A DNA stretch of 64,000 bases from contig JAXGPL010000008.1 of NCBI GenBank assembly GCA_040766985.1, positions 49,978 to 113,977 on the forward strand. Reading direction: 5' to 3'. This stretch comes from Bacillota bacterium. Its GTDB lineage: Bacteria > Bacillota > Sulfobacillia > JAUYEG01. Position numbers and translations under genes: made by a program. The notes beneath the pieces were generated by a model. That model was not told the origin of the DNA. It worked only from the letters and a program-made list of their open reading frames with translations, and did not search any database. This document shows, piece after piece, positions 4,487 to 30,615 of the stretch (position 1 is its first letter; the number at the start of each line of letters is the position of its first letter).

Positions 4487-4958
4487 CTCTCACGCCTCGG
4501 GCCTGCGCTGCGGCTAATGGCAGCGGCAGCCCAGCCCGCCACCTGCGGGCTCAGGCCGAGGGTGGCAAGTGAAGGCTCCTCAAACCAACGCAGGTGCGGC
4601 AGGTCCTGGCTGAGCCGCGGCCGGAAGCCGGCGGCGGGGCGCGCGAAGTATACCAGGCAGATATGCTCGTGTGTAGCTGTGATGCGCTCCAACATCAATC
4701 CTTCCGGCCGCGGCAGGTACGCCGGCGACCAATCGGGCGGAGTCGGTGCTCAGCAGCTCGACCGGAAGGCCGGTCTCGCGCGAGCACCACCCTCAGAGCT
4801 GCCTGGCCAGGCAACTCCTCCGGCCGGATATGTCCCGAGGGCGGCGACAGCACGCCGGATAGTTCGTCATATAGGAAAGCCACCCGGCCCTGATGGACGG
4901 GAAACACTGTGACCACGAAGTCCCTCGTCGGACGATCCTCTTGGGTCATGACCTGCAC
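4483..4958 (-). pseudogene. NUDIX-hydrolase-like gene, degenerate, spread over three frames
   Basis: The pieces are VVTVFPVHQGRVAFL...SGHIRPEELPGQAALR, then RETGLPVEL in another frame, then ERITATHEHICLVYFAR...LRWF in a third. The NUDIX box is imperfect. Confidence 0.35.
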
Positions 4959-4988: not shown

Positions 4989-6122
4989 CTACCTGCTGGC
5001 GTTATCCTCCTGCGATGTATCTTCTAGGTAGATCGACCGGATTTGCCCCGCCGCTTTGGCCCAGGAAAAGCGCCGGGCCCTGCGCAGCCCGGCGGCCGCC
5101 AGCCTTCGCCGCAGGCCCTCGTCGCCGGCGAGCATCTTGATCGCGCCGGCGAGCCCCGTTACGTCCCCCGGTCCGACGCGGATCGCCGCGCTACCGGTTA
5201 CCTCCGGGATAGACGAGGTTTCGGTGGTGATGACTGCGGTCCCGCAGGCCATCGCCTCGAGCGGGGGGAGACCGAATCCCTCGTAGAGCGAGGGGTAGAC
5301 GGCGAAGTCGGCCGCGCTGTAGAGCGCGGGCAGGTCGGCTTGCTCGATGTGGCCGGCGAGCCGAAGGTACGGCACAATCCCGATAGCCTGCCCCATGGCC
5401 TGGATTGCCGGGAGATGGCGCACGGATTCGCCGGCAATGACCAGTTGCTGGCCGGAGTCAAGACCCCTGCAGACCTTGCTGTAGGCGTAGAGCAGGTCGA
5501 AAAGGCCCTTCCGGGGGTTCAGTCCCCCGACGTAGACAAGGAAAGGCGGCTCGACGCCGTACCTGGCCTGCAGGATCCCGTAGGCCGTCGCCGGGCTCAC
5601 AGGCCGGAAGAAGTCCTGGTGCGCAGGATGGACAACCCGGATCCGCTCGGGCGGGACCGACAGGACCGAGGTTAGATCCCGGGCTGTATGCCTGGATACG
5701 GCGATGACCCGCCACGCCGCTTCGAGGGCGGCCGTTACCTCGCGCTGGAAACGGCGGCGGAAGCTGGCGTTGACGGTTTCCGGCATTACGAAAGGGATCA
5801 GGTCGTGAACGGTGACTACCAGCCGCGTCGCACCGAGGTCATCCGGCACCCGCATCCCGTTCTGCGGGACGTGATAGATGTCGATGGCCTCATCGCGCAG
5901 CCAGCGTTCGATAAGCGGGAGGTCCGCCTGGTGTTGCCGGGGCATGGGGAAAGCCCGCCAACGCTCCGGAAGCGGCGGCGGCTCCTCGTTGTCCGCCCAC
6001 AGGATGCGGTACTGCTCGTCGCCCGGCAGCGCCTGGAGATTGGCGATCAACTGCTGAGTGTAATTGCCGACGCCGGTGCCGCGGTACCAAACCACGGGGC
6101 GGGCGTCGATGCCGATGATCAG
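4989..6122 (-). CDS. GT4 family glycosyltransferase (CotSA-like)
   Basis: Carries the EGFGLPPLEAMACGTAVITTETSSIPEV signature. The conserved N-terminal strand LIIGIDARPVVWYRGTGVGNY lies upstream of the first canonical start (GTG 6095). That implies CTG 6122, which sits 9 nt after GGGGGAGGG. Confidence 0.85.
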   Translation of the reverse strand: MIIGIDARPVVWYRGTGVGNYTQQLIANLQALPGDEQYRILWADNEEPPPLPERWRAFPMPRQHQADLPLIERWLRDEAIDIYHVPQNGMRVPDDLGATRLVVTVHDLIPFVMPETVNASFRRRFQREVTAALEAAWRVIAVSRHTARDLTSVLSVPPERIRVVHPAHQDFFRPVSPATAYGILQARYGVEPPFLVYVGGLNPRKGLFDLLYAYSKVCRGLDSGQQLVIAGESVRHLPAIQAMGQAIGIVPYLRLAGHIEQADLPALYSAADFAVYPSLYEGFGLPPLEAMACGTAVITTETSSIPEVTGSAAIRVGPGDVTGLAGAIKMLAGDEGLRRRLAAAGLRRARRFSWAKAAGQIRSIYLEDTSQEDNASR

Positions 6123-6124
6123 CC

Positions 6125-7438
6125 CTAACCACCCTCCCCCGCTACGGCCGGCCCGACGCAGCCCATGGCCTCAAGCGCCATGTCGACGGCGTCGCGGACT
6201 GTGCCGGCCACAAAGTAACGTCCCTCCACCTCGGGTGGAAGAGAGGCCGCAGGCGTGCCGCCCACACGGCCGTCGCCCCGGCCGTCCGGGAAGGCCTGCC
6301 GTACGCGGGCATGTTCTTCCTCCTGTTGCGCCCCCAGCCCGGTCCGCACCAGAACGCCTGTGCCACCCGACGCCAGCCCTGCCTGGACGTCGCCCCACGT
6401 ATCACCGACCGTCCACGACCCGCCGAGGTCAAGGCGTAGTTCTGCGGCGGCCTGGAACAGCATGCCGGGCAGCGGCTTGCGGCAGCCGCAGTTTCCGGGG
6501 ACGTGGGGACAGAAGTAGACGGCGTCGAGGCGCGCGCCGGCCGCGGCCAGCAACTGCTCCAGGCGGTCGTTGACCAGCATCAGGGCCACTTCGCTCAGTT
6601 GGCCGCGCCCGATGGCCGCCTGGTTGGTGACCAGGACTGCGGGCACGCGGCAAGCGTTTAGGCGGCCGACGGCTTCCGCGGCTCCGGGCAGCAATTCCAC
6701 CTGAGCCGGGTCTTTGACCAGGTCGCGCTTCGCGATCAACGTCCCGTCCCGGTCAAGAAAGACCGCCGGCCGGCGTGGAGTGAGCCTTTCTCTGGCGGGC
6801 GTTGGCGAATGGCGGGTCCGGCACTCCACCGGCCGCATCCGCAACGCAGCCCGTTCGATCCCCGCCGCTATGGCGTGCAGCAGAGCGATGTGGACCTCTT
6901 GCACGTGCGGGGTCGTCAAGCCGTCGCCCGGGCCGGGCGGCCGGGGCACGCAAACCTCCACGTCCACACATGCCGCCGCCCCGGACTCAACACCGTCCGC
7001 GCCGGTGAAGGCGACCGTGAGCAGCCCGTTCCGCTTGGCGGTCCGAAACGCGGCAAGCACGTTTGGCGAGCTACCGCTGGTGGAGATGCCGATCAGGCAG
7101 TCCCCGGGCCGCCCGAACGCATCCACCTGCCTTGCAAACACCGACTCGAAACCGTAGTCGTTGGCCAGGGCGGTCACGGCCGAAGGCTGGCAGGCGAGGG
7201 CCATGGCCGGCATCGCGTCCCGTTCGTAAGCGAACCGCCCGACCAGTTCCGCGGCGAAGTGCTGCCCGTCGGCGGCGCTTCCGCCGTTGCCGCATACGAG
7301 GAGGCGCCCGCCCGCTTCAATCACCAGGTACAGCAGTCCTGCCAGTGACTCGGCCCGGCCGGCCAGGGTCGTGGCCGAGTGCGCTGCCCAGGCCTGCCAG
7401 CTAGCCAGGTAACCCTGGCAATTGAGGTTGGCGTTCAT
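6125..7438 (-). CDS. Fusion protein: phosphoheptose isomerase (SIS domain, GmhA) plus D,D-heptose 1,7-bisphosphate phosphatase (HAD, GmhB)
   Basis: N-terminal half: LVCGNGGSAADGQHFAAELVGRF, GISTSGSSPNV. C-terminal half: AVFLDRDGTLI, YFCPHVPGNCGCRKPLPGM, GDTWGDVQAG. ATGA overlap with hddA. Confidence 0.85.
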   Translation of the reverse strand: MNANLNCQGYLASWQAWAAHSATTLAGRAESLAGLLYLVIEAGGRLLVCGNGGSAADGQHFAAELVGRFAYERDAMPAMALACQPSAVTALANDYGFESVFARQVDAFGRPGDCLIGISTSGSSPNVLAAFRTAKRNGLLTVAFTGADGVESGAAACVDVEVCVPRPPGPGDGLTTPHVQEVHIALLHAIAAGIERAALRMRPVECRTRHSPTPARERLTPRRPAVFLDRDGTLIAKRDLVKDPAQVELLPGAAEAVGRLNACRVPAVLVTNQAAIGRGQLSEVALMLVNDRLEQLLAAAGARLDAVYFCPHVPGNCGCRKPLPGMLFQAAAELRLDLGGSWTVGDTWGDVQAGLASGGTGVLVRTGLGAQQEEEHARVRQAFPDGRGDGRVGGTPAASLPPEVEGRYFVAGTVRDAVDMALEAMGCVGPAVAGEGG

Positions 7439-8457
7439 CTGCCTTCCACCCGCCAGGTCTCAAGGCCCCGCTCACTGAAGCAAAACCGCGTCGCCCGCCC
7501 GCCCAGCACGGACAGCGCTGCAGTCACCGCCGGGGCGCTGTGTTGCGGGCAATAGAGCAACAGATACCCGCCGCCGCCCGCCCCCAGGAGTTTGCCGCCG
7601 ACCGCGCCGGACCTGATCGCGGCGGCATACAGCAGGTCGATGTGCGGGTCGGTGATCCCGGGGGCAAGCCGTTTCTTCTGTTCCCAGCCTTCGCTCATCA
7701 GGCGCGCGAAGTCGTCAAGGCGCGCTCCGGCCAGGGCGCCCCTCATTTCCACAGCCAGATCGCGCAGCCTGTCGAGGGCTGCAGTCACGCGCGGCGCGCC
7801 GCTCCGGTACGCCTCCTGCTGCGTCCCGATGATGTTGCGGTTGACCCGCGTCTTTCCAGTGAAACCGAGAAGCAGGTTGTGGTGCAACTCCAGCAGGAGC
7901 GCTCGCGGAAGCATCAACGGCTCGACGGCAACCTCGGGGCCGAAGCGGATGAAGTTGAGCCCACCGAATACGGCCGCGTATTGGTCCTGCCGTCCGCCCT
8001 TGATCCCGCAATCAACCCGCTCCACGCGGTATGCCAGTTCAGCGAGATCGTGGCCGCCAAGGGGCCTGTCGGCCAGGGCGCAAAGGGCGCCCAGCGCGGC
8101 GACGACCACCGAACTGCTCGAACCGAGGCCGGAACCCGGAGATGCGTCGCTATGGACGGTAAGGGTAACGCCGCCCGCGGGAACGCCAGTCGCCCGCACA
8201 GCGCCGGCGAGCAGGGCTAACGAAGAGGGAGCCTCCCTGGGCGGCGGCACGGCATCCTCCGCGAATTCAGCCGCGGCGTGGAGGTCGAGCGATTTCAGGC
8301 GGACGACCCCGTCTGTCCGTGGCTCGGCAGAGGCGTACGCGTACATGTCGATCGTGGTTGAGAGCACGGCTCCGCCACGGGTTTCCGGATACGGCGATAC
8401 GTCGGTACCCCCGCCGGCGAAACTGATGCGCAACGGAGCCTGGCTGCGGTAGATCAC
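7435..8457 (-). CDS. hddA: D-glycero-D-manno-heptose 7-phosphate kinase (GHMP kinase)
   Basis: VIYRSQAPLRISFAGGGTDVSPY at the N-terminus and the GHMP motif PGSGLGSSSSVVVA. GTG 8457 lies 5 nt after GGGAG and overlaps the hddC stop (GTGA). The ORF-track start at 8688 is over-extended. Confidence 0.8.
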   Translation of the reverse strand: MIYRSQAPLRISFAGGGTDVSPYPETRGGAVLSTTIDMYAYASAEPRTDGVVRLKSLDLHAAAEFAEDAVPPPREAPSSLALLAGAVRATGVPAGGVTLTVHSDASPGSGLGSSSSVVVAALGALCALADRPLGGHDLAELAYRVERVDCGIKGGRQDQYAAVFGGLNFIRFGPEVAVEPLMLPRALLLELHHNLLLGFTGKTRVNRNIIGTQQEAYRSGAPRVTAALDRLRDLAVEMRGALAGARLDDFARLMSEGWEQKKRLAPGITDPHIDLLYAAAIRSGAVGGKLLGAGGGGYLLLYCPQHSAPAVTAALSVLGGRATRFCFSERGLETWRVEGR

Positions 8458-9227
8458 TTTCGCTCCCACTCCCCTTTGAGCTGGCGGTACCGGTCCGGGG
8501 TCCCGATGTCCGTAAACCGCCCCGTAGATGGATAGACGTACACCGAGCCCAGCAGCGGAACCAGGAGCCCGGCCTCGAGCGAGTATGGACCGGTGCGCGT
8601 ACCGCCGCCGGGCGCCTCCCCCGGCGCGACGAGGGCTGCGGCTTCGAACATGCGCCGTTCGCACATGAACCACCCGCAGCAGACCCAAGCCTCAGCTATG
8701 CCGGCGGCCCCGGCCGGGTGCGGGAGAGCCCCGCGGGCAAAGGCCGTGACCTTGCCGCCCCGTCCCGTGAGGACATAGCCGGCGTCATGGCGGGGCCTGC
8801 CCCGGGACTTGCGCCCGACAACGGTGACCAACCCGCCCCTGGCCCGGTGATAGCGAGTCAGCTCGGCAAAATTGAGGTCGACCAGCGTATCGCCATTGAG
8901 CAGCAGGAAGGTGTGGTCGAGAAAGCGTTGGGCGAGGCGGACGGCTCCCCCGGTCCCGAGCGGCGCGTCTTCGAGTGAGTACCGGATATCGAGCCCGAAA
9001 TCACTTCCGTCCCGGAAGTAGGCTGCGATCTCCTCGGCCCGGTACCCCACGCACAGCACCACCCGGCGGATGCCATGAAGGCGCAGCCGATCCAGCACGT
9101 GCGCAAGGAACGGCCGTCCCGCGACCGGCGCGAGGACCTTGGGCAAATCGGGCACCGCGGGCCGCAGCCTAAGGCCGAGGCCGCCGGCGAGGACCGCCGC
9201 CTGCGTGACGTCACTCGATGTCGTCAT
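8454..9227 (-). CDS. hddC: D-glycero-D-manno-heptose 1-phosphate guanylyltransferase (sugar nucleotidyltransferase)
   Basis: AAVLAGGLGLRLRP...PKVLAPVAGRPFLAHVLDRL...VVLCVGY nucleotidyltransferase N-terminus. Pathway context with GmhA/GmhB/HddA. Confidence 0.75.
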   Translation of the reverse strand: MTTSSDVTQAAVLAGGLGLRLRPAVPDLPKVLAPVAGRPFLAHVLDRLRLHGIRRVVLCVGYRAEEIAAYFRDGSDFGLDIRYSLEDAPLGTGGAVRLAQRFLDHTFLLLNGDTLVDLNFAELTRYHRARGGLVTVVGRKSRGRPRHDAGYVLTGRGGKVTAFARGALPHPAGAAGIAEAWVCCGWFMCERRMFEAAALVAPGEAPGGGTRTGPYSLEAGLLVPLLGSVYVYPSTGRFTDIGTPDRYRQLKGEWERK

Positions 9228-10287
9228 CGTGAACCCCCGCCGTGCTATCCGTCAGGCACTCGGCGAAGTAGCGGTCCAAGAAGCGGTGTTTACGGTCGTC
9301 CTGGCGGTGATGCTTGGTCAGCTTGTGGATGTGACGGCGGTACGACCACCCCGGCCGCTGATTGTAGTACCGCTCCACGTCGCGGTAGAACTTGGTGGGA
9401 AACGCGAGGAACGCCCAGATGACGGGCATCATGGCCGGCTCTACCGGCAGGACGGAGCGGTATGCGGCGAGGATCTGGCGCGCGGCATCAAGCCGCCACT
9501 TGTTGTTCTTGAGGGCGCGCCTGGTCAGCTTGGCGATATCGGCGGCGGGAAGGTCCATGCGGGTGGTTTCCAGGTCGATGATCCGCGTGCGCCCGTATTC
9601 GGTGACCACGAAGTTGCGCCCGGCGGGATCGCCGTGGACCACTTGCCGGAGCCGTTGATACCGCTTGCAGAGCGAGGCGTACTCGGAGCGCGCGAGGACG
9701 TCAAGGGCCCGCTCGGCGTAACCGAGCTGGCGCCGTCCGCGGGCAAGGACCATGTGGTCGAACCCGGTCCCGTTGCCGGTCATCACCCTGCGGCGCGCCT
9801 CCGCGAGGCAGGCCTCGATCTCCGCCTTGCGGTCGGCGAACGTCGCCGGCCAGGTATGCCAGTACTCGCGCGGCCCCTCGCCGGGGCCGAGTTCCTTTCC
9901 CCGGGCCAGGCTATGAAAGCGCGCAAGAGCCCGCGTCGAATGAAGCACATCGCCGAGGTGGTCCCATTCGCAGGTCCGCCCGTTGATCCACTCGCAGAGG
10001 ATCCAATGACGCCTGCTCGTCTCCGAAGCCATCACGTTGCCCGATTTAGTCCGCAAGAGGCGCGGCGTGAGGGGGTCGTCGCCGCGGCCCGCCGAGAGGA
10101 ACTCGGTGAGCGTGCCGATGTAACGGGCCCGGCGGCGGCTCTTGTTGAGCGGCTTGAGGACGTATACCTCATCCGCCGTTTTAACCCGGAATACGTCCTG
10201 GAAGCGCTTGATTTCCGCCGGCTGCACATCCCAGTTGCCGAGCAGTTCGGAAACCTGCAGCACATCCATCGGGCGGGTGTGGACCAA
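9211..10287 (-). CDS. CotS-family bacterial spore kinase-like phosphotransferase (copy 1)
   Basis: VYVLKPL, VVHGDPAGRNFVV (catalytic loop) and RIIDLET. TTG 10287 lies 9 nt after AAGGAG; ATG 10269 is an alternative start. The upstream 90 aa of the ORF track was rejected. Confidence 0.75.
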   Translation of the reverse strand: MVHTRPMDVLQVSELLGNWDVQPAEIKRFQDVFRVKTADEVYVLKPLNKSRRRARYIGTLTEFLSAGRGDDPLTPRLLRTKSGNVMASETSRRHWILCEWINGRTCEWDHLGDVLHSTRALARFHSLARGKELGPGEGPREYWHTWPATFADRKAEIEACLAEARRRVMTGNGTGFDHMVLARGRRQLGYAERALDVLARSEYASLCKRYQRLRQVVHGDPAGRNFVVTEYGRTRIIDLETTRMDLPAADIAKLTRRALKNNKWRLDAARQILAAYRSVLPVEPAMMPVIWAFLAFPTKFYRDVERYYNQRPGWSYRRHIHKLTKHHRQDDRKHRFLDRYFAECLTDSTAGVHDDDIE

Positions 10288-10300
10288 CGTCACCTTCTCC

Positions 10301-11380
10301 TTAAATCCCCAGGTCCGGCGCGAATTTGCGCCGGAATGCCGCCAGGAACTTTTCGCGTTCGCGCCGACCGCCGGTCTTGCGGTCGAGCGATTCGAGGAAC
10401 CGGTCGAGCGGCCAGGGCTGGCGCTCGATGTAGTACTGCAGGCCGACCTGCCAGAAGTCCTGAGGCCAGTGCAGAAGGGCCGCGAGGATTGCCATGTCGT
10501 CCGCACCGACCGGCTCGGGAGCACGTGCGTTGTAGGCGGCGATGACTTCATGCGCCCACCGCACGTCCCAGCCGAAGCGCTTGCAGTGGCGCAGGATCAG
10601 GCTGCCGATGTCGTGCAGCCGCGTGTCCGCGATGCAGTAATCAAGGTCGATCAGATGAAGCTGCCCGCTCTCGCCGAGCAGGATGTTGCGGTGCGTGAGG
10701 TCGTGGTGGCACAGAGAGGCGTTGAGCGCCTCGACTTCCATGACCCGCCGGTACGGCGTGCGGAGCAGCATGGCGATCGCGGTAGCGCCCTGATCCCAGT
10801 AGTACGAGAGCAGGCCGATATACCGGCGGTCAAAGGAGGTCTTGGCGTCCGACTCGTGGGCCAGGCGCTTATACACGGAGAGCTGATCGAGCCGGTTGCG
10901 GAATATCTCCGGCCACTTGCCCCAGACTACCCGCGACGCGGGCTCGGAGGGGGCCGCGAACCCGTGGCTGTAGAGGTGGAGCTCCGCCACCCTCGCCACC
11001 GCGGCGTGCAGTTCACGGCGCCTGCGCAGGCTTACCGGCCGGGCCTCGATCCATGGGCTCAGGACGAAGACTTCCCCAGCGTGCTTGCAGTACGGCAGGC
11101 CGTCGAGGGTGAGGTCGAACCGCGTCGCCCACTTGAACCCCCTTCGCGCCAGGTGCTCCTGCGCGAGGTGCACGAAGCCGATCTCGGTTTCCTTGATTCG
11201 CGACCGCTTGAGGACCTTTGGCCCATCGCTGGTCTCCAGCTTGAGCACTCGTGGACCGGCGCCGGGCAGTTGCTCCTTGGTCTTCAAGACGAGACCATAA
11301 CAAGCCAACACCGCCTCGGGCTGCAATAAGGACCCCTCCCAGCCGGGCAATACGAACCCGGTCCTCAGTAGGTGGTCCAT
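10301..11380 (-). CDS. CotS-family bacterial spore kinase-like phosphotransferase (copy 2)
   Basis: ACYGLVL...KVLKR, LCHHDLTHRNILL and LHLIDLDY. Only the 3' 1080 nt of the 877-aa ORF are credible, because the rest is antisense to the GT4 gene at 11459. Confidence 0.75.
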   Translation of the reverse strand: MDHLLRTGFVLPGWEGSLLQPEAVLACYGLVLKTKEQLPGAGPRVLKLETSDGPKVLKRSRIKETEIGFVHLAQEHLARRGFKWATRFDLTLDGLPYCKHAGEVFVLSPWIEARPVSLRRRRELHAAVARVAELHLYSHGFAAPSEPASRVVWGKWPEIFRNRLDQLSVYKRLAHESDAKTSFDRRYIGLLSYYWDQGATAIAMLLRTPYRRVMEVEALNASLCHHDLTHRNILLGESGQLHLIDLDYCIADTRLHDIGSLILRHCKRFGWDVRWAHEVIAAYNARAPEPVGADDMAILAALLHWPQDFWQVGLQYYIERQPWPLDRFLESLDRKTGGRREREKFLAAFRRKFAPDLGI

Positions 11381-11458
11381 TATAGTGCTGCTCACGGGCC
11401 AGTGGTGCCCGGCCCCCCCGGGCTTCATAGTATGTAGCAATACTGAGGGGGCTCGTCC
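11381..11458. promoter_or_regulatory. Divergent promoter region between the two glycan/CotS operons
   Basis: 78-bp gap with the only AT-rich patch in the area. It contains TAGTAT (11428-11433, -10-like) and the inverted repeat AGTAT-N6-ATACT (11429-11444), followed by RBS GAGGGGG and ATG 11459. Confidence 0.45.
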
Positions 11459-12595: not shown

Positions 12596-12613
12596 CCGTG
12601 CGGGGGGATCAAT

Positions 12614-14305
12614 GTGACCTTCATTAAGTCGACTGGAAATGAGTTTGCCGCGCGCCGGCAGCACTACGAATTGCTCCGCCAGGCGGTCCGGGCATACGGC
12701 TTCGCTCCCGGCGCCATGGTCCGCATCGGCTCGGGATACCGGGTCGAGGGGCCTGCGGGGCCGCGTTTCCTTAAACGGCTCAACTACGGCCCGCCCGAGG
12801 CCTCGTTTATCTACCACGCCCTGGAGCATCTGCGGCGCACCGGCTTCGCGGAGGCGCCGCGGATGCACCTCACAACCGACGGCCTGCCGTTCATCGTCCC
12901 CGACGGCGAGATCTATTACCTCCAGGACTGGCACGACCTCAGCGATCCGGACCTTGGCGATCCGTCGGTTCTCGGCGGCTGCGTCGATCTGATGGCGCGG
13001 TTACACAGGGCGGGCGAGGGATTTGAGCCCCCGGGGGACATCGCCGACGTCCGCAACGACTACGGCTCGTGGCTGGACAAGTGCGTCGGGCGCCTGCGGG
13101 AGATGTATAGCTTCGCCGAACTTGCGGAGGAAAGGAAGCGCATCAACGCTTTCGACGGACGGTACGCGCGCGCAAGCCTGTACTTCGCGCGCCAGGCAGA
13201 GGAGGCGGTGCGCAGGCTGGCCGAACTCCCGCTCGCCGAGGTCGCGCAGCGTGAACGGCAGGCCAAGGCCCTCTGCCACAGGGACTTCACTCCGCGCAAC
13301 CTAGGTCTTGACGCCAGATCCAAGCTCCGCGTGTTCGATTTTGACAACGTGGCGCGCGAAGTGCGCCTGGATGACCTGGCCAAGTTTATCCGCCGGGCGG
13401 CCTACCTTGACGTTGACCGCGCGGCGTTCATCGTCGAGCGGTACGGCCGCGAGACGGGCAGGGCTCTGAGTTCCGAGGAAATCGCCCTGCTTTCTGCCTA
13501 CCTGCTATTTCCCACAGAGTTCTGGTCCGTGGGCAATTCGCGGTTCCGCAAGGACCGGCCGCGCGAACACAGACTCCGCCGCCTGATCCGGGACAGCGAG
13601 GCCTGGGCCTCCTTTGCCGAGGCCTTGGCCGACCTGAACGTGCCGAGGAGCGAGCTATCGGCCGCGAGCAGGGGCGGCTGGCTCAGCGACGCGCCAGGCG
13701 GCGCACCAGGCAGCATGCTGGACCCTGCCGGCGAGGGCCCCGAGGGCATCGCCCTGCCGGAGGGGCCGTATCTACCGTCCGTGCCGTTTGCGGAGGGGCA
13801 TACCGCGCCGGCCGCTGTTGCAGACACCGGGTTGGTCCGCTTCGACCGGCCCGCCGCCCCATCCAGTCCAGACCAAGAGGAGGTCGTATCGACCGTGCCA
13901 TCGACCGACAGCTGGAATTGTGACCGCCCGCAGGAAGAGAACACCGGGATACCGGTTGTCGCACATCAGGACCCGGCTGACGCACATCAGGACCAGGGTG
14001 ACGAAGCGCCGGAGGAGCAGATCTGGGTCGGCGCCGAGCTTCCCGAGGGGGCCGAACCCTGGGTTGATCCCATCGCCTCCGGCGGGGATGCCGCCTCGGA
14101 CGCGCCCGGGCAGTCACCGCCGGTTTCCATTGACGCGGGAGTTGAGGAAGCCATAGTCGAGGCGGATGCGGAGCCGCAGGGGCCCGAGGCCGCGGATGAC
14201 TACGTGGAAGCGCGCCGCGGGCTGATTACCAGTGCGACGACCATTGTCTGGGGGAAGTGGCCGAAGCCGATGGAGAAGGCGTCTTCCGGGGGACAGCAAG
14301 GATGA
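12614..14305 (+). CDS. CotS-family kinase-like protein (copy 3) with a roughly 230-aa acidic/Pro-rich C-terminal tail
   Basis: GTG after GGGGGGA. Kinase motifs FLKRL, LCHRDFTPRNLGL, VFDFDN. From about residue 330 the sequence is low-complexity D/E/P/A-rich. Confidence 0.75.
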   Translation: MTFIKSTGNEFAARRQHYELLRQAVRAYGFAPGAMVRIGSGYRVEGPAGPRFLKRLNYGPPEASFIYHALEHLRRTGFAEAPRMHLTTDGLPFIVPDGEIYYLQDWHDLSDPDLGDPSVLGGCVDLMARLHRAGEGFEPPGDIADVRNDYGSWLDKCVGRLREMYSFAELAEERKRINAFDGRYARASLYFARQAEEAVRRLAELPLAEVAQRERQAKALCHRDFTPRNLGLDARSKLRVFDFDNVAREVRLDDLAKFIRRAAYLDVDRAAFIVERYGRETGRALSSEEIALLSAYLLFPTEFWSVGNSRFRKDRPREHRLRRLIRDSEAWASFAEALADLNVPRSELSAASRGGWLSDAPGGAPGSMLDPAGEGPEGIALPEGPYLPSVPFAEGHTAPAAVADTGLVRFDRPAAPSSPDQEEVVSTVPSTDSWNCDRPQEENTGIPVVAHQDPADAHQDQGDEAPEEQIWVGAELPEGAEPWVDPIASGGDAASDAPGQSPPVSIDAGVEEAIVEADAEPQGPEAADDYVEARRGLITSATTIVWGKWPKPMEKASSGGQQG

Positions 14306-15306
14306 GTTTGGAGCTGCCCGGAGTGTTTGCGGCCTACGGGCTGGAGGTTTCGCACTTCGACCAGGTCGGAGAACACCTTTGGCATCTCGCCGTGCCGGGC
14401 GGCGAATTGGCCCTGCGCGCCATCCCGCGCAGCGGCTCGAAGGCGGAGCTATCGCTGCTGGCGTTGGATCGCTTGATTGCCGGCGGCTTCGCCAACCTCC
14501 CCAGATTCCACGAGACCAAGGAAGGCTCCATCGGCCACCGGTCGGAGCATGTCACCTGGCTGGTGTCCGACTGGGTCACCGGGCATGGAGCGACGCTGGG
14601 ACTGACCAGCGACGCCGTCGTGGCCGGGCGTGACCTCGCTCGATTGCACACCCTGGCCGATAGTCTTCGGGCTCCCGAGGACCTGGCCGCGCACTTCGGG
14701 CGGCACCTCAGCCGCTGCCGGAGCAGGCTCAAAGCTCTGCGGACATACGTCTTGGTGGCCGAAAACCGGATCTACCAAACTGCGACCGACCGGGTGTTCC
14801 TCGGGCTGATGGAGGGGATCCTGCCGCTCGCGGAACGGGTCATCCGCGACCTCGAAGCGTCGCCATACCGCGAACTGGCCGAATCCGACCGCGCCCGGGG
14901 GGCTTTCATCTACCACAACATGGGCGAGGGCGGCGTCGTCATCACCCACGAACCCCAGCCGCGGGCCATGTTCGTCGACTGGAGCGGCTGTCGCCTGGAC
15001 AGCCCGGTGTTCGACCTCTGCAAACTCATCGGCCGGGTCGCCAAAGGGTCCGGGGGCGACCCGGAGGTCTGCCGCCGCACCCTTTGCGCATACCAATCTG
15101 TACGCCCGCTAAGCCAGGCCGAGGCCGCTGTGCTGCCCCTGCTGCTGCAGTTCCCGCAGGAGTTCTACGCGGTCGCCAAACGCTATTACGAGAACAAGCG
15201 GGACTGGACGGAGCGTTCGTTCACCAGGCGGCTCCGGCGCGCCGTCGACCGCGGCGCCGCGCTCGCAGCGTGCCTGACCCCGCCGCCTCCGGCCGACGGA
15301 AATTGA
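14302..15306 (+). CDS. CotS-family kinase-like protein (copy 4), catalytic loop degenerate (probable pseudokinase)
   Basis: ATGA overlap with the previous gene. CotS-like N-terminus (FAAYGLEV...). Where the paralogs have H-x-D-x4-N, this copy has FIYHNMGEGGVVI, followed by VDWSGCRLD. Confidence 0.65.
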   Translation: MSLELPGVFAAYGLEVSHFDQVGEHLWHLAVPGGELALRAIPRSGSKAELSLLALDRLIAGGFANLPRFHETKEGSIGHRSEHVTWLVSDWVTGHGATLGLTSDAVVAGRDLARLHTLADSLRAPEDLAAHFGRHLSRCRSRLKALRTYVLVAENRIYQTATDRVFLGLMEGILPLAERVIRDLEASPYRELAESDRARGAFIYHNMGEGGVVITHEPQPRAMFVDWSGCRLDSPVFDLCKLIGRVAKGSGGDPEVCRRTLCAYQSVRPLSQAEAAVLPLLLQFPQEFYAVAKRYYENKRDWTERSFTRRLRRAVDRGAALAACLTPPPPADGN

Positions 15307-15325
15307 CATGAGGTGAGCCTAGACC

Positions 15326-16540
15326 TTGATTGTGGTTTTCGACGGCCGCGGTGCTACCCGCTACCGCGGCACCGGGATCGGCACGTATACACATTGCCTT
15401 GCGGAGGCGCTCGAGGCGACCCGCCTGCCGACCGACGTCCTCCTCGTCTGCCTGGCCCGGGAGGGTGGCCCGGTGCCCCTCGAGGCGGCCGCCGTCCGGC
15501 AGGCCCCGGTTCCTGGCGGCGGGCTGGTGACATGGCGGTTGTCCTCCGCCAGGCGGGACGACGAGGCCTCGGAAATCGCCGCCATCTGCCGCCGCGTGAA
15601 CGCGGACGTCCTGCACATGCCCCAGAACGGACGGGGAATGCCGGATGTCGGCTGCGCGGTCGTGACGACCGTCCACGACCTGATCCCGTACGCCCTCCCC
15701 CAGACGTGCAGTGCATCCTACCTCCATGACTGCTTGGCCCAGATGCCCGCGATCGTCAGGCGGTCCGACCGCCTGATCGCCGTGTCCCGGCACACGGCCA
15801 CCGGCCTCGTGGAAACTCTCGGCGTCCCCCCCGACAAGATCGCCGTCATCCACGAAGCGGCTGAGCCGATCTACACCGCGCGAAGAGGCGACGGCGGCGG
15901 GAACCGTGGGGACCGCGCGGCGGCCCCGGCGCCGGGTGGCGCAATGCCGGCGTCCCAGGGCCTTCCCCCGCAGTACATCCTGCACACGGGCGGGTTCAGC
16001 CCCCGCAAAAACCTCACCGCGCTGGTGACGGCGATCTACGCCCTGGTCAAGTCGGGGCGGGCGCAGGGGAAATTACCGGCGGTCGTACTCACAGGGCGCG
16101 CGGGGCGGGACAACGAGGCGATTTCAGCTCTGGCGAGGCGGCTTGGTGTAGCCGATCGGGTCTTCATGCCGGGCATGCTGCCGGTTGAGGCCATGCCGGC
16201 GCTGTACGGCAACGCCGTCGCGGTGTGCCTGCCTTCGCTGCACGAGGGCTTCAGCCTGCCCATCGTCGAGGCGATGGCCTGCGGCGCCCCGCTATTGCTG
16301 TCGGACATCCCGGTACACCGGGAGATCGCGGGCCCCGCCGCGGCGTTCTTCGATCCTTACGATCCGGAGGATCTGGCAAAGCAGCTGGACTGGCTGGTCA
16401 GCCGGCCGGACCAGCGTTCGGTGATCTCGTCCCTGGGCAGAGCACGTGCCCAACGGTATAGCTGGCGAAGGGCCGGCCGCGAAACTTGGCTCGCCTACCG
16501 CTGGGCGGTGATGGAGCGTGAGCCAGACGCAAGCGCCTGA
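15326..16540 (+). CDS. GT4 family glycosyltransferase
   Basis: TTG start 9 nt after GAGGTGA. MIVVFDGRGATRYRGTGIGTYT N-terminus; HEGFSLPIVEAMACGAPLLLSDIPVHREIAG. Confidence 0.85.
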   Translation: MIVVFDGRGATRYRGTGIGTYTHCLAEALEATRLPTDVLLVCLAREGGPVPLEAAAVRQAPVPGGGLVTWRLSSARRDDEASEIAAICRRVNADVLHMPQNGRGMPDVGCAVVTTVHDLIPYALPQTCSASYLHDCLAQMPAIVRRSDRLIAVSRHTATGLVETLGVPPDKIAVIHEAAEPIYTARRGDGGGNRGDRAAAPAPGGAMPASQGLPPQYILHTGGFSPRKNLTALVTAIYALVKSGRAQGKLPAVVLTGRAGRDNEAISALARRLGVADRVFMPGMLPVEAMPALYGNAVAVCLPSLHEGFSLPIVEAMACGAPLLLSDIPVHREIAGPAAAFFDPYDPEDLAKQLDWLVSRPDQRSVISSLGRARAQRYSWRRAGRETWLAYRWAVMEREPDASA

Positions 16541-18296
16541 CGCGGTCGAACGGCGGCTCCGCTGTCACTCGCTGCGGCCGCGTTCCGCTGCCCTGGGCAC
16601 GCCGGGGCCGGTCGACGCCGAGCTAGGACCGGGCGATATGCTGGCGGTCATCGGCCCGCCGGGGGCCGGTAAGAGCTCCCTGCTGCGGGCCATCGCCGGC
16701 CTGGAGGACCCGCTCTCCGGCGGAGCTTTGGTACACGGTTCGCCGGCCTGGTCGCTCGCGTCCGCCGGTCCCCGGCCGGGGCTGGTTTCGGCGGCCAGCC
16801 GGCTCCATGACGGGTGGACCGCCGAGAAGTCCGCACGCGCCGGATTCGAGGCGGCGGGGTGGCCCGGCGAGCACCTGGCCGGGGCGGTCTCCTCTGTGTT
16901 CGAGCAGCTCTCCCTGGCCCCGCTCGCAACGAGGACGCCGTCCGAGCTGACCACGGCCGAACGCCACCAGGTGTTGATTGCCCGTGAGCTTGTTTCGTTT
17001 CCATCCATGCTGTTATTGGACGATCCTTACTCAGGCGAGGGTGCCGCCACACGGCGGGAGGTCGCAGGAACCATCCGGGTCGCCCGGGAGAAGCTCGGGA
17101 CCACAGTCGTATACGCCTCGGAGTCGCCGGACGAAATCACCGCGACTGCAACGCAGACCACAGTGCTCACCGTCCCGCTCGACATCACCCCCTTGGCCGA
17201 CTTGCTCAAAAAGCGCGGATCCGCCAAGAACGGCGGCGGAAGCGGCGCAGGCGAGCCGCCAGAGGCCACTTCGGCCGGAGGCGAACCCGCCGGGACAGCC
17301 GCCGGGACAGCCGCCGGGGCAGCCGGCGGCGCCGCCGCCGACGCCGTTGCGGCCGATTCAACTGCCGCACCGGGATTGCCCGCAGCACCCATCCCGAAGG
17401 GAGCTTCCGGGCCACTCGGACACGGGGGAGGCGGCGTGGCCGGGGAACCGCGGTGGGTCGCCGCGGCCGTCTTCGGGTATACGGCGCCCGGCGACGCACA
17501 TGCCCTGCACCTTGCCGGTCCCGGAGGCCCGGCGCGCGAAGCGCTGCTGGTCCTCGACCTCACCCGTCTGCCCGGAATGCAGTGGATTTCCAGCGACGGG
17601 GCCCTCGATACCGGTCCGGGACAACCTCCGAGGGGCGTCGCCTGGGTGGCGACCGGAAGCGTAAGAGCAGACACCGGGTTCAGGAGGCCATTCGGCGGCC
17701 CGGTGACTGTGGAGATCACCCCTGGCGACGGCTCGGTCCAGCGCACCCGGGCGATTCTCGTCGACCTGGCCGAGAGCACGCCGGCGCTGCGACTGGAGCT
17801 TCTGTCCGACGGCTCGGGGCACCGGGGCCCGCGGCTCGTCCTCGGCATCTGGCGGCGACGGACGGATGCCCCGGTCCTTCGCAGACTGGCGCGCGAAGCC
17901 GGGCGGGAGCGGGCGTGCCTGCCCGTTGTCGTCGCCGGGTCGCACGTGGCGGCTGCAGAGCAGTTTCCATACTGCTACCTCCGGACTACGCCCTTGCACC
18001 CGTCGCCGTGGCGTTCGCTCATCCGGGGGAGGATCGTCGCGGCCCTGCCCGGGGGGCCGCAGCCGGCATACGGCCCGGCAATGGGCAACGCCCCCGACCT
18101 GCTCGGGCGTCCCGACCTCGTCCTGAGCGTAGAACACTTCCAACGCCGGGCGATGGTGGCGCTGCAGCAGGCTCCGCGCGGGACGGGCGGGGCGGACGGC
18201 GATCCCATCCTCGCCGCAGCCCTGTGGGCGCTGACCACCGGCAGCCCCGGCCTGGCGATGAGCCTGCTGCGGGCCGGCGGCCGCGACAGTGGCTAG
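16518..18296 (+). CDS. Degenerate ABC-ATPase domain fused to an Ala/Gly/Pro linker and an unknown roughly 330-aa C-terminal domain
   Basis: Walker A GPPGAGKSS. Signature-like LTTAERHQV. Walker B reads MLLLDDP (Asp replaces the catalytic Glu). The H-loop position reads YASES. No transmembrane segments, and the C-terminal domain is unrecognised. Confidence 0.6.
   Translation: MSQTQAPDAVERRLRCHSLRPRSAALGTPGPVDAELGPGDMLAVIGPPGAGKSSLLRAIAGLEDPLSGGALVHGSPAWSLASAGPRPGLVSAASRLHDGWTAEKSARAGFEAAGWPGEHLAGAVSSVFEQLSLAPLATRTPSELTTAERHQVLIARELVSFPSMLLLDDPYSGEGAATRREVAGTIRVAREKLGTTVVYASESPDEITATATQTTVLTVPLDITPLADLLKKRGSAKNGGGSGAGEPPEATSAGGEPAGTAAGTAAGAAGGAAADAVAADSTAAPGLPAAPIPKGASGPLGHGGGGVAGEPRWVAAAVFGYTAPGDAHALHLAGPGGPAREALLVLDLTRLPGMQWISSDGALDTGPGQPPRGVAWVATGSVRADTGFRRPFGGPVTVEITPGDGSVQRTRAILVDLAESTPALRLELLSDGSGHRGPRLVLGIWRRRTDAPVLRRLAREAGRERACLPVVVAGSHVAAAEQFPYCYLRTTPLHPSPWRSLIRGRIVAALPGGPQPAYGPAMGNAPDLLGRPDLVLSVEHFQRRAMVALQQAPRGTGGADGDPILAAALWALTTGSPGLAMSLLRAGGRDSG
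17289..17324 (+). repeat. Three tandem 12-nt units (GCCGGGACAGCC x2, GCCGGGGCAGCC) encoding AGTA repeats in the linker
   Basis: Read directly from the sequence at 17289-17300, 17301-17312 and 17313-17324. Confidence 0.9.
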
Positions 18297-19386
18297 CGTC
18301 GGCTCGAGTTGCCCCACTTATGCCGCCATCCTGGCGGGCGGGAGCGGCAGCAGGTTTTGGCCCTGGAGCCGGGAGTCCCGGCCCAAGCAACTGCTGTCGC
18401 TCGACGGCGGCCCGACGCTCCTTGAAACCACCACGCGCCGGATGCTCCGGATCGTTCCTCCGGAACGGCTCTTGGTGATCACTCGCACCGACCTGCGCGC
18501 AACCGTCACCGGCCTGCTCCCGGACATACCGGCGGAGAACGTGATCGGCGAGCCCGAACCAAGAGACACCCTCGCCGCAGTCGTCCTGGCTGCAGCGCTC
18601 GCCCGGGTCCGGTCGGGGCGCACCGACGCCGTTACGGTAATCGCGTCATGCGATCACGTGATTTCCGGGCAGTTGGCCTTCAGGCGGAGCATTGAATCGG
18701 CGGCCGCGCTCGCCGCCGGCACCTCGCGGCTGGTCACGCTGGGCATCCGGCCGGGCTGGGCAGAAACAGGCTACGGCTATGTCCGGCCCGGCAAGAGCAT
18801 CGCCGGGCCGGGCCCGGTAAGCGCCCGCGAGGTCGTGGCCTTCGTCGAAAAACCGGGCCTTCAGCGGGCCGAACGGCTGGTTGCGGAAGGCTGCCTGTGG
18901 AACGCCGGGATATTCGCGTGGCGCTCGGACGTGCTGCTTTCGGCGGCCGGACGTCACGTGGCCGGCGCGGCCGCGGCGGTCGCCCGCATCATCAGGGCCC
19001 TTGGCGAGGAGGGCCGCGCCTTGAGCGAGGTGTACGCGGCGTTGCCGCGGGTTTCCGTGGACCGGGCGATACTCGAGCGAGAGCCCGGCCTGGCCGTCGT
19101 CGAAGCCGAATTCGGTTGGCACGATGTCGGCACCTGGAATGGGTTGGCCCGGACGGCCGGCGGCGATACTGCGGGCAACGTGTCGTTTGGGCCCGTAATG
19201 GCCTTCGACGGCGCAGGGAACATCGTCCAAGCCCGGGCCGGAAGACCTGTCGTCGTGGCCGAAGTGAGCGGCCTTGTGATCGTCGACATGCCGGACGTCC
19301 TGCTGGTGACGAGCCGTGCTCAGGGCCAGCGAATCAAGCAGGTCCGGGAGCAGTTGCGCCGGGAGGGCTGGGACCGCCTGCTGTAG
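18289..19386 (+). CDS. manC: Mannose-1-phosphate guanylyltransferase
   Basis: YAAILAGGSGSRFWPWSRESRPKQLL N-terminus and GYGYV; length about 365 aa. Confidence 0.8.
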   Translation: MASVGSSCPTYAAILAGGSGSRFWPWSRESRPKQLLSLDGGPTLLETTTRRMLRIVPPERLLVITRTDLRATVTGLLPDIPAENVIGEPEPRDTLAAVVLAAALARVRSGRTDAVTVIASCDHVISGQLAFRRSIESAAALAAGTSRLVTLGIRPGWAETGYGYVRPGKSIAGPGPVSAREVVAFVEKPGLQRAERLVAEGCLWNAGIFAWRSDVLLSAAGRHVAGAAAAVARIIRALGEEGRALSEVYAALPRVSVDRAILEREPGLAVVEAEFGWHDVGTWNGLARTAGGDTAGNVSFGPVMAFDGAGNIVQARAGRPVVVAEVSGLVIVDMPDVLLVTSRAQGQRIKQVREQLRREGWDRLL

Positions 19387-20772
19387 CCAGTCCCCTGCCC
19401 GCGTCAAGCAGCGCCTGAAGCAGCAGCGGGCTCTCCGCCTGCGCATAGAGCCGGAGCACAGGCTCGGTGTGGCTCGCGCGCACGTGCAGCCACGAACCGC
19501 CGCTGAGGAGCAGCTTGACTCCGTCAAGACGCTCGCACCCCGTGACATCTTCTCCGGCAAGGCTTGGGGGCGGCGAAAACCCGCGTTCGATCGCTTCCGC
19601 AGCCGCCGCCGGCACCCGGATGTCCACCCTGCCGAGCCACACCCTGCCCGCTCGCTCCCTCAGCCGCTCGACTGCCTCGACCAGGGTTATCTCCCGCATC
19701 GCGAGATGTTCGAGGATCATCAGGGCGGCAAAACCCCGTCGCGCTCGGGCAGATGAAAGGCAAACCCGATGCCGCCGCTCTCCTCGCCGCCGATTACGGA
19801 GACGCCTGCCTTGAGTAGCGGTGCGATATGCTTGAACCCAACCGGTGTGATGTGGACCCCAAGCCCATACCCGCCGGCCAACCGGTCGACCAGCGTGGAT
19901 GTGGTGACGGTCCGGACTGCGGGGCCGCGCATGCCCCGATCCTCTACCAGGTGCATGAACAAAAGCGCGAGGAGGTGGTGCGCGTCAACGTAGGAGCCGT
20001 CCTCGGCGATGGCGGCGATCCTGTCGCCGTCGCCGTCCGTGGCGATACCCAGGGCCGGCGGGTCCGCCTCCCGGATACGTTCCCGGAGCCCGCCAAGGTT
20101 GGCGAGAGTCGGCTCCGGTGAGAGGCCGCCGAACAGGGGGTCGCGAACTCCGCGTATGGTTTCCAGGCCGGGGACCAGCCTGCCCAGCCAACCGGCCGCC
20201 GACCCGTGCATGGCGTCGTGGACCACCGCCCCCGCCCGGGAGCAGACGGCCTCGATGGCGTGCAGATCGACCAGCCTGGCCACATGGGACAGGTATCCCG
20301 GATACGGGTCGAACTGCTCGACCGGGGCTGCCGGAGCCTGCGGCGGCGCGGTCGGCAACGCCCCGCCGGGGGAAAGCATCGTCTCGAGCCGGGCGGTCAG
20401 CTCCGCCCCTGCCGGCGCTCCTGTCTCGTCGCGCAGCTTGATTCCGCTGTACCTGTAGGGGTTGTGGCTGGCGGTGACAATGGCGGCAAGGGCAGTACCA
20501 AGGGTCCGCGCCGCAAGGGCGACTGCCGGGGTCGGGCACGGGCCCGCGCACGAGATGGTCCGCACTCCGCGCGACGAGCAAATCCCGGCGAGGATACCCG
20601 CGTAATCCTCTGCCATGAACCGGCAGTCATGGCCGATCACGATGCCCCTTCCGCCCCAATCGCGTTCGAGTATCAGCCGCGTCAGAGCATCACCGAAGCG
20701 CCTGACGCCGGCAAAGGTGAATTCGTCGCCGATCACCGCCCGCCAACCGTCGGTGCCGAAATGGATTCCCAC
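19334..20772 (-). pseudogene. Phosphomannomutase/phosphoglucomutase, with one frame break at the A/T run 19730-19733
   Basis: GIHFGTDGWRA and the active-site loop VTASHNPYRYSGIKL are in the 377-aa ORF. The C-terminal domain (RLDGVKLLL...VRASHTEPVLRLY) is in the 128-aa ORF. GTG 20772 lies 6 nt after GGGAGG. Confidence 0.8.
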
Positions 20773-28908: not shown

Positions 28909-29019
28909 GGCGACACTCCCTCTCGAGACGGGCATGTCGGTCGCGCCCGTCGGACGGACCAGGCTATTCTATGCGCGTCCAGCCGGGCTCACCACGCAGG
29001 GACGGGCGTCGATCATGCT

Positions 29020-30548: not shown

Positions 30549-30583
30549 ATCGGGTGTATCGCCGGCAAATCGGGTGTGTCGCC
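30549..30583. repeat. Two 15-nt direct repeats ATCGGGTGT(A/G)TCGCC spaced 20 nt start to start
   Basis: Located at 30549-30563 and 30569-30583 in the divergent rubredoxin/pyrG intergenic region, immediately upstream of the pyrG -35. Confidence 0.85.
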
Positions 30584-30585
30584 AG

Positions 30586-30615
30586 TTCTCAGCGCGGCTC
30601 CGGACATGCTATAAT
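30586..30615 (+). promoter_or_regulatory. pyrG sigma-A-type promoter
   Basis: TTCTCA, then an 18-nt spacer, then TGcTATAAT (extended -10, TATAAT at 30610-30615). Confidence 0.5.

Follow-up and report, generated by a model that had tools for sequence, protein, structure and literature searches.

The gene cluster described here lies between 4.5 and 20.9 kb of a 64,000-nucleotide (nt) stretch of assembly GCA_040766985.1 (contig JAXGPL010000008.1) from an uncultured high-GC bacterium of the Bacillota, referred to below as the window, and combines spore kinases of the CotS family with GT4 glycosyltransferases and with enzymes for two activated sugars. Genes were assigned from open reading frame (ORF) calls together with Pfam and NCBIfam profile searches, and all coordinates are window positions with the strand in brackets. 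The G+C content is 64–71% per 2-kb segment and about 67% overall, and the reading frames of the locus were distinguished by their third-position GC. Two divergent, tightly packed operons followed by a convergent phosphomannomutase gene make up the locus. They hold four CotS-family paralogues (two intact, one marginal and one conserved pseudokinase) and three GT4 genes. The gene list, order and strands given in a preliminary description of this DNA were all recovered by the ORFs and by both profile libraries, and a Nudix hydrolase gene, which that description had missed, is by its position the seventh gene of the minus-strand operon.

Read from the divergent region outwards, the minus-strand operon begins with the spore kinase CotS_F at 10301..11326 (−), whose ORF extends to 11380. 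It is followed by a second CotS-family spore kinase, CotS_E, at 9211..10287 (−), an HddC-like sugar-1-phosphate guanylyltransferase at 8454..9227 (−), HddA, a GHMP-type D-glycero-alpha-D-manno-heptose-7-phosphate kinase, at 7435..8457 (−), and a GmhA-GmhB fusion at 6125..7438 (−) with the isomerase in residues ~20–200 and the HAD-IIIA phosphatase in residues ~223–380. The glycosyltransferase GT4_a at 4989..6095 (−; Glycos_transf_1 97.8 bits, Glyco_transf_4 56 bits) and the Nudix hydrolase at 4516..4958 (−), found in two frames by tblastn with the protein of a related contig (L081), complete this arm. The plus-strand operon starts with the glycosyltransferase GT4_G at 11459..12595 (+; Glycos_transf_1 119.8 bits) and continues with CotS_H at 12614..14305 (+), the pseudokinase CotS_I at 14302..15306 (+), GT4_J at 15326..16540 (+; Glycos_transf_1 90 bits, Glyco_transf_4 55 bits), an ATP-binding cassette (ABC)-domain fusion at 16518..18296 (+; ABC_tran 59.5 bits) and the mannose-1-phosphate guanylyltransferase ManC at 18289..19386 (+). 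Convergent with ManC lies an enzyme of the phosphomannomutase/phosphoglucomutase family at 19367..20769 (−), in which PGM_PMM domains I–III were recognized.

Tight coupling of the operons, as described earlier, is evident from the junctions within them, where neighbouring genes overlap or lie no more than 34 nt apart. The coding regions of CotS_E and HddC, of HddC and HddA and of HddA and the GmhA-GmhB fusion overlap, with the HddC stop overlapping the HddA start. The divergent gap had been given as 78 bp, which applies only if CotS_F starts at the ATG at 11380. The CotS_F orthologues are 343 residues long, and in the intergenic alignment a conserved GGGAGGG ribosome-binding site precedes a TTG or GTG codon. 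On this evidence translation probably begins at the TTG at 11326, and the gap is then ~132 bp long. An Rfam scan of the window found no RNA family.

TIGR02906, the model of the CotS subfamily, has a curated cut-off of 172.7 bits. CotS_F (257.4 bits) and CotS_E (189.5 bits) scored above it, and CotS_H (167.5 bits) and CotS_I (152.6 bits, with no Pfam APH match) just under it, the model still being their best match by a wide margin. The closest solved structure to CotS_F is that of YtaA/CotI from Bacillus subtilis (PDB 2q83, E = 3e-27). These scores and the structural match place the proteins in the CotS family, as first described, and not among generic APH or choline kinases. In an alignment of the window paralogues with YtaA and with orthologues from the contigs L081 and L084, the catalytic Asp (D239 of YtaA), Asn244 and the DxD/E motif were kept in CotS_F (HHD...N...DLD), in CotS_E (HGD...N...DLE) and in the window copy of CotS_H (HRD...N...DFD). 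The CotS_E motifs are kept in both orthologues as well. In CotS_H the same two orthologues read HRN, with Asn in place of Asp. CotS_I has exchanged the catalytic Asp for Asn or Arg, the Asn for Gly and the beta3 Lys for Arg in the window, in L081 and in L084. Because all three residues are lost in all three genomes, CotS_I is, judged by these residues, a kinase that has been dead for a long time, in agreement with the first description of it. The kinase domain of CotS_H occupies residues ~1–330 and is followed by an acidic, Pro-rich tail of ~230 residues that gave no Pfam domain match; long CotS_H tails are also found in L002, an uncultured Bacillota metagenome-assembled genome (MAG), and in L081 and L084.

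The heptose pathway is carried by three genes. HddA aligned to the NCBIfam HddA model NF049969 over positions 2–338 of 338 (E = 6.6e-59) and, from one end to the other, to the solved heptokinases 4usk/4usm, 3k85 and 4n3o (E = 1e-65 to 1e-49), with fucokinases as the next class at ~80 bits. Thousands of homologues at ~50% identity carry the JGI name D-glycero-alpha-D-manno-heptose-7-phosphate kinase (hddA). The nearest relatives outside the lineage are spread over many phyla, a distribution that suggests horizontal acquisition of HddA. For the fusion protein, the GmhA half matched NF010546 with 170 bits and TIGR00441 with 166 bits, and the GmhB half matched NF006506 best, with 140 bits, and the HAD-IIIA model TIGR01662 with 95 bits, above its cut-off. 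The fusion is shared by L081, L083 and L084, whereas L053 encodes GmhA and GmhB in two genes. HddC gave a mannose-1-phosphate guanylyltransferase as best NCBIfam match (121 bits), then HddC (111 bits), both under their cut-offs. The Pfam domains of these proteins are SIS_2 and HAD in the fusion, GHMP_kinases_N/C in HddA and NTP_transferase in HddC (82.7 bits). The pairing of a GHMP kinase with an NTP_transferase-type enzyme marks, as far as domain content tells, the guanosine diphosphate (GDP) route with its alpha-anomer, the adenosine diphosphate (ADP) route being that of a pair formed by the PfkB-type HldE and the cytidylyltransferase-type HldC. Between them, the predicted enzymes GmhA-GmhB, HddA and HddC would convert sedoheptulose-7-phosphate via heptose-7-phosphate, heptose-1,7-bisphosphate and heptose-1-phosphate to GDP-heptose. 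The claim that all four steps to GDP-D-glycero-alpha-D-manno-heptose are encoded was thus upheld, the four enzyme types being present and HddA matching the solved kinases along its whole length.

ManC gave 230.6 bits with the bifunctional model TIGR01479, over positions 3–348 of 467, and consists of an NTP_transferase and a ManC_GMP_beta-helix domain. It has no isomerase domain, so that the locus covers GDP-mannose from mannose-6-phosphate only. The synthesis of GDP-mannose proposed before stands in this narrower form, with ManC and the phosphomannomutase both in place. As predicted enzymes, the genes were thereby shown to form a set that can make GDP-heptose and GDP-mannose.

The ABC-like protein consists of a degenerate nucleotide-binding domain (residues ~30–217), an Ala/Gly-rich linker and a C-terminal domain of ~290 residues. 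Alignment with MalK showed LTTAE in place of the LSGGQ signature and Asp in place of the Walker-B Glu, and neither the Q-loop Gln nor the H-loop His is kept; Walker A has decayed as well in the L081 and L084 orthologues. The domain resembles importer-type MalK and not Wzt or TagH; a Wzt-like exporter identity was considered and ruled out by the loss of the catalytic motifs. To judge from these replacements, the protein is a pseudo-ATPase and probably not a transporter subunit. Its C-terminal domain is restricted to the lineage and nearly orphan, with ~3 homologues among 1.84 billion representative proteins, and a structure predicted from a four-sequence alignment reached a mean predicted local distance difference test (pLDDT) score of 54, too low for a fold search. 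The protein evolves fast, with 33% identity between genomes whose CotS_F proteins are 57–65% identical. A PADLOC search returned no defence system; its only hits were mad3 and mad8 P-loop matches in this protein, at ~34 bits over 30 residues.

No transmembrane segment was found in the 13 core proteins, that is, all products except the Nudix hydrolase, the maximal hydropathy over 19 residues being at most 1.9. Within the locus there is no initiating phosphoglycosyltransferase, flippase, polymerase, permease, ligase or oligosaccharyltransferase. From the missing membrane segments and the dead ABC domain it follows that no glycan export machinery is encoded at the locus, a lack by which it differs from loci for S-layer glycans, capsules and O antigens.

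For a comparison of neighbourhoods, one genome per species was scanned with a CotS_F alignment, and the 79 loci obtained were compared with all 13 window proteins, GT4 and ManC being counted within 10 kb of the CotS_F orthologue. A GT4 gene was present in 60 of the 79 loci and ManC in 32, and most loci keep the divergent GT4/CotS pair. Cultured spore-formers, among them Clostridium, Lutispora thermophila and Anaerosolibacter, account for many of these loci. Heptose genes were found in three loci, all from high-GC relatives, and in none of the other 76, which still hold two to four CotS-like genes; GmhA, GmhB, HddA and HddC are absent, for example, from the loci of Clostridium drakei, C. carboxidivorans, Lutispora thermophila, Anaerosolibacter carboniphilus, Caloramator, Fervidicella and Fonticella. 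The full 13-gene order is present in L002, at 38–60% protein identity, and the same 13 genes stand in the same order on the metagenome contigs L081 and L084, so that the arrangement is not due to chance. The contig L083 carries the seven-gene arm from CotS_F to Nudix and then ends, and L003 and L053 have the heptose core in common with the window at a CotS_F identity of 37–42%. Heptose genes thus lie between kinases and GT4 in seven genomes (the window, L002, L003, L053, L081, L083 and L084), and CotS_F identity across the conserved loci is 37–65%. The GT4_a orthologue occupies the same position in the six other genomes, and GT4_J orthologues are found in L002, L081 and L084. L081, L083 and L084 have common flanks as well, consisting of the Nudix gene, an M42 peptidase, a histidine phosphatase, a ferredoxin, a PdaB-like deacetylase with LysM, and pyrF. 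We conclude from these counts that the kinase/GT4 backbone is widespread among Clostridia and that the heptose module is a lineage-specific insertion of an uncultured high-GC lineage.

Two further observations were made in the survey. Four contigs with CotS/GT4 loci (L023, L037, L045 and L056) are filed under Caulobacteraceae, Calditrichales, Bacteroidota and Patescibacteria MAGs, probably as a result of binning contamination. In two relatives, L002 (9641–9835, −) and L053 (9173–9400, −), the divergent promoter region is separated from the GT4_G orthologue by a small ORF of 64–75 residues, whose product has two hydrophobic segments; the window, L081 and L084 do not have this ORF.

The timing of expression was addressed through the promoter regions. 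Upstream of the CotS_F orthologues the strict sigmaK pattern AC-N16/17-CATAnnnTA occurred in 24 of 78 loci, compared with 1.2 on average, and never more than 5, in shuffled sequences, and the relaxed form aACAc-N14-CATATAAT[GA] was found in 51 of 78, 33–59 nt before the start. The genera with the sigmaK-type box include Clostridium, Lutispora, Anaerosolibacter and Caloramator among others, and the box lies at locus coordinate ~9940–9970 in most of L004–L080. On the divergent GT4 side the signal was weaker (9 of 56, with 2.7 expected). By these patterns the CotS/GT4 locus family looks like a set of late mother-cell genes, as is B. subtilis cotS.

In the lineage of the window the divergent gap is GC-rich and cannot be aligned except for two conserved islands. 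One is a -10-like box upstream of CotS_F, CACTATAATGGACCACC, at 11371..11387 (−). This block of 17 nt is identical in the window, L081 and L002, and L084 has TATGAT; it agrees with the clostridial CATATAATG box at 7 of 9 positions. The block is kept identical where the proteins are only 55–65% identical, which is more than a -10 box needs, and it may be an operator overlapping the transcription start. The other island is the palindromic box CATAGTATG at 11426..11434, read on both strands. On the plus strand it gives CATAnnAT, a sigmaE/sigmaK-like -10 element, 24 nt before the GT4_G ATG, and its counterparts on the GT4_G strand are CATAGGATG in L081 and L084 and CATACAATG in L002. CATANNATG matches the window three times, and this single site, read on both its strands, accounts for two of the matches. 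The window lineage thus keeps CATAnnATG upstream of the GT4_G operon and ACTATAATG upstream of CotS_F, and the ACTATAATG and CATAGTATG boxes are partial matches to the sigmaK-type promoter. A scan with the sigma-70 consensus gave no match in the divergent gap. The TATAAT hexamer occurs twice in the 64 kb, the other copy lying before pyrG, where a sigmaA-type promoter reads TTCTCA-18-TGcTATAAT (30580–30615, +). Taken together, the local promoter evidence for sporulation timing is suggestive and not decisive.

Beyond the locus, the window carries genes with housekeeping functions, namely for fatty-acid synthesis, cytidine triphosphate (CTP) synthase, coenzyme A (CoA) transferases, an efflux system and amidohydrolases, and the ~8 kb past its left edge, reached through the same-species MAG L086, hold housekeeping genes only. 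A polysaccharide deacetylase with a C-terminal LysM domain at 1058–2104 (+) has PdaB as its best NCBIfam match (165 bits, cut-off 237) and is kept near the locus in L081, L083, L084 and L086. A short Mn_catalase/ferritin-like protein at 28237–28968 (−) matched PF05067 with 51 bits and has an N-terminus that appears CotJC-like by eye, and a further protein of the window carries two LysM domains. The PdaB-like, the CotJC-like and the two-LysM protein hint weakly at sporulation, by similarity. At 37094–38251 (+) two adjacent ORFs of 263 and 119 residues have high third-position GC and could be assigned to no family; the first gave a sub-threshold KapB match of 16 bits, and the second is rich in charged and coiled-coil-like sequence.

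Several reading frames at the edges of the locus are broken. Compared with L086, the Nudix gene carries two 1-nt insertions, at 4777 and 4739, that split it, and intact orthologues of 151–157 residues follow the GT4 gene in L081, L083, L084 and L086; no NCBIfam subfamily could be assigned. The neighbouring M42 peptidase gene has a single-base indel at 4070 and is intact in L086. The MAG of the same species agrees with the window at 99.3% identity over the left flank (L086) and, in a gap-free stretch of 10 kb (L001), at 99.9%. In the phosphomannomutase ORF the frame is interrupted near 19730, where tblastn with the L081 orthologue matched two frames; TTGCCGCCCTGA is present and TTGGCCGCCCTG would restore the frame, so that one G appears to be missing. 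The gene is intact in L002, L081 and L084. Window bases 1–~200 are indel-dense. From these comparisons the frame breaks (4070, 4739, 4777 and ~19730) and the indels look like assembly or consensus errors and not like pseudogenisation. It had been pointed out that the locus is the only long stretch of the window without a frame break, and this carries no biological weight, the breaks at 4777, 4739 and 4070 being single-base differences from a MAG of the same species.

In summary, we think it rather probable, on gene content and neighbourhood, that the locus is a lineage-specific elaboration of the known spore kinase/GT4/nucleotide-sugar cluster and makes a spore-surface glycan that contains heptose and mannose. 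This interpretation predicts a heptose/mannose layer on the spores. The locus would be expressed in the mother cell, late in sporulation. Using the two GDP-sugars in the mother-cell cytoplasm, the GT4 enzymes would build a heptose/mannose glycan directly on outer-coat or crust proteins, and assembly would proceed without a lipid carrier or an export step. Direct glycosylation in the cytoplasm would explain the missing lipid-carrier and export genes. The CotS-like proteins, bound to the coat as partners of the transferases, could anchor or recruit them, which is the part that CotS plays for CotSA in B. subtilis, and may in addition add phosphate to the glycan or to the protein that accepts it. 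A structural or scaffold role would then fall to the pseudokinase and to the dead ABC protein, and the Nudix hydrolase may trim the GDP-sugar pool.

Several points weigh against a spore-surface glycan of this kind. None of the four heptose enzymes reaches the equivalog cut-off of its model (HddA 200 against 600 bits, HddC 111 against 300, GmhA 170 against 276 and, for TIGR00441, 166 against 209, GmhB 140 against 178), and for this reason the heptose assignment rests on best matches, full-length alignment and gene context. The PDB neighbours of the GT4 enzymes were unspecific as to the donor (sucrose-phosphate synthase-like, GlgM, MshA, PimA); the matches of GT4_G include the GDP-mannose-dependent PimA and are non-specific too. 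No acceptor protein for the glycan was identified, and no substrate is known for the spore kinase family (PMC2860764). Upstream of CotS_F the box reads TATAAT without a mismatch, like that of the housekeeping gene pyrG, and the leading CA of a sigmaK -10 element is absent from it, so that vegetative transcription is conceivable. Pfam and NCBIfam searches of the 64-kb window gave no hallmark sporulation gene, nor did the genes of the ~8 kb past its left edge include one. The lineage itself is uncultured and branches deeply, the closest pyrG relatives having 80–89% identity and the next 65%, from mixed phyla, with no named relative above 65%.

Part of these points would fit a vegetative envelope glycan, namely an S-layer glycan, a capsule or a secondary cell-wall polymer, on which the CotS-like proteins would act as chain-modifying or chain-terminating sugar kinases. 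Models for such a system are the heptose/rhamnose S-layer glycan of Aneurinibacillus thermoaerophilus and the ABC-transporter-dependent polymannans. In Gram-positive bacteria the known role of GDP-D-glycero-alpha-D-manno-heptose lies in S-layer glycans, as Kneidinger and colleagues reportedly described in 2001. An ABC-type ATPase gene lies inside the operon, the TATAAT before CotS_F is shared with pyrG, and the window has no hallmark sporulation gene. However, a polymer of this type would call for an initiating transferase, for Wzm, Wzx or Wzy or for an O-oligosaccharyltransferase, and the 13 core proteins are without a membrane segment. The ABC domain has lost its catalytic motifs and is MalK-like instead of Wzt- or TagH-like, the kinases belong to the spore-specific CotS subfamily, and the backbone is syntenic with clusters of cultured spore-formers that bear sigmaK-type promoters. 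We consider a vegetative glycan unlikely.

A variant of the spore-surface interpretation gives the kinases a catalytic part in it. By analogy with WaaP, which phosphorylates heptose in lipopolysaccharide cores, and with WbdD, which caps mannan, the CotS kinases might be kinases of glycans and not of proteins that, together with the GT4 enzymes, make a phosphorylated heptose/mannose spore-surface polymer in the mother-cell cytoplasm and without a lipid carrier. This we regard as doubtful. If true, it would provide a first substrate for a widespread spore kinase family and the first spore envelope containing heptose.

Alternatively, the locus might encode a cytoplasmic small-molecule or glycoconjugate pathway, leading for instance to a phosphorylated heptoside, a compatible solute or an aminoglycoside-like product, in which the APH-fold proteins are real kinases and the spore-coat name is a legacy of annotation. 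Heptose, APH and glycosyltransferase genes do co-occur in hygromycin-type clusters, and all proteins of the locus are soluble. The CotS fold is, moreover, the fold of the aminoglycoside and choline kinases, and sugar reactants have been suggested for it by Scheeff et al. (PMC2860764). Yet no cyclitol synthase, aminotransferase, methyltransferase or exporter was found in or adjoining the locus, the presence of one conserved pseudokinase and one marginal kinase fits structural coat proteins better, the backbone is common to spore-formers, and PADLOC gave only the weak P-loop matches in the ABC-like protein. Such a pathway appears very unlikely, and an aminoglycoside-type biosynthetic cluster in the strict sense was ruled out by the absence of its core enzymes.

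It might finally be argued that the heptose genes are mere passengers, inserted into a CotS/GT4 operon and supplying GDP-heptose elsewhere in the cell. The backbone does not need them, as the 76 of 79 loci without heptose genes show, and the spread of HddA relatives over many phyla outside the lineage suggests horizontal acquisition. In the window, however, the heptose genes stand with overlapping frames between the kinases and a GT4 gene, and this position is kept in seven genomes in which CotS_F identity falls to 37%, which argues for co-expression and a shared function. We therefore give the passenger explanation very little credence and retain the elaborated spore kinase cluster as the preferred one.

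Spore-surface glycans govern adhesion, hydrophobicity and dispersal, and the CotS/YtaA kinases are still without a known substrate. A complete and traceable GDP-heptose pathway within such a cluster leads specifically to the expectation that the coat or crust contains heptose, a sugar that offers a chemically distinctive handle on what the kinases and transferases act on. With a sigmaK-type promoter and frequently a linked ManC, dozens of clostridial CotS/GT4 loci direct attention to cultured organisms as subjects for study, which may be the more useful outcome in practice.

The general architecture has a clear precedent. CotS/YtaA kinases were described by Scheeff et al. in 2010 as clustering with CotSA-type GT4 and nucleotide-sugar genes in Bacilli and Clostridia, and kinase and glycosyltransferase partner were never found apart in any genome (PMC2860764). 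In most Clostridium species three kinases lie in one operon between two glycosyltransferases, with a fourth kinase nearby, and several bacterial spore kinases are pseudokinases (PMC2860764). The same authors proposed that spore kinases might bind or phosphorylate sugar reactants, and they cite the finding that B. subtilis CotSA requires CotS for spore assembly (PMC2860764). The preliminary description had considered the combination of genes undescribed. This does not hold for kinase/GT4/nucleotide-sugar clusters or for their pseudokinases, both known since 2010 (PMC2860764), and it does hold for GDP-heptose, which occurs in 3 of 79 loci. Full-text literature searches linking heptose with CotS/spore, exosporium or spore coat returned nothing relevant. 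As far as the survey tells, only the GDP-heptose supply is new in an architecture known since 2010.

Among the closest known systems is the cotSA-cotS / ytaA(cotI)-ytcC-ytcAB-ytdA cluster of B. subtilis. There, as here, CotS/YtaA kinases are encoded next to paired GT4 glycosyltransferases and enzymes for activated sugars, some paralogues are dead and all products are soluble, and YtaA is the best structure for CotS_F. The B. subtilis cluster makes uridine diphosphate (UDP)-sugars through a UDP-glucose pyrophosphorylase, a dehydrogenase and an epimerase, whereas the window locus is predicted to make GDP-heptose and GDP-mannose and has, unlike it, four kinases, three GT4 genes, divergent operons, a Nudix hydrolase and a dead ABC protein. 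For the B. subtilis cluster, localisation to the spore and dependence on sigmaK are established; for the window locus both are predicted. In arrangement, the clostridial loci with a BSKC2/6/1 operon and BSKC4 (L035 of C. carboxidivorans, L013 of Lutispora thermophila and L077 of Anaerosolibacter) are similar: two to four genes for CotS-like proteins are interleaved with a single GT4 gene or a pair of them, a GT4 gene runs divergently from that of the lead kinase, and a pseudokinase belongs to the set; ManC lies within 10 kb in 32 of the 79 loci. They differ in having no GmhA, GmhB, HddA or HddC, their protein identity to the window is 28–40%, and they bear a clear aACAc-N14-CATATAAT sigmaK-type promoter where the window lineage has a match at 7 of 9 positions.

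For the heptose module, the S-layer pathway of A. thermoaerophilus and the capsule pathway of Burkholderia pseudomallei, with its heptokinase WcbL, are the counterparts, and they share with it an SIS isomerase, a GHMP kinase, a HAD-IIIA phosphatase and an NTP_transferase. Those pathways feed exported polymers and are embedded among membrane-bound transferases and transporters, whereas the window pathway stands among spore-coat-type kinases in a locus free of export genes and, unlike them, has GmhA and GmhB fused. The polymannan of Escherichia coli O9a is made with the GT4 enzymes WbdA-C, ManB/ManC, the kinase-methyltransferase WbdD and a Wzt that carries a C-terminal glycan-binding domain. As an analogy, it shares with the window locus GT4 enzymes that would use GDP-mannose, a protein-kinase-like enzyme that would act on the glycan, ManB/ManC and an ABC ATPase with a C-terminal extension. 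Compared with O9a, the window locus has no Wzm permease and no methyltransferase, its ABC protein is dead and MalK-like, and its kinases are of the CotS and not of the WbdD type.

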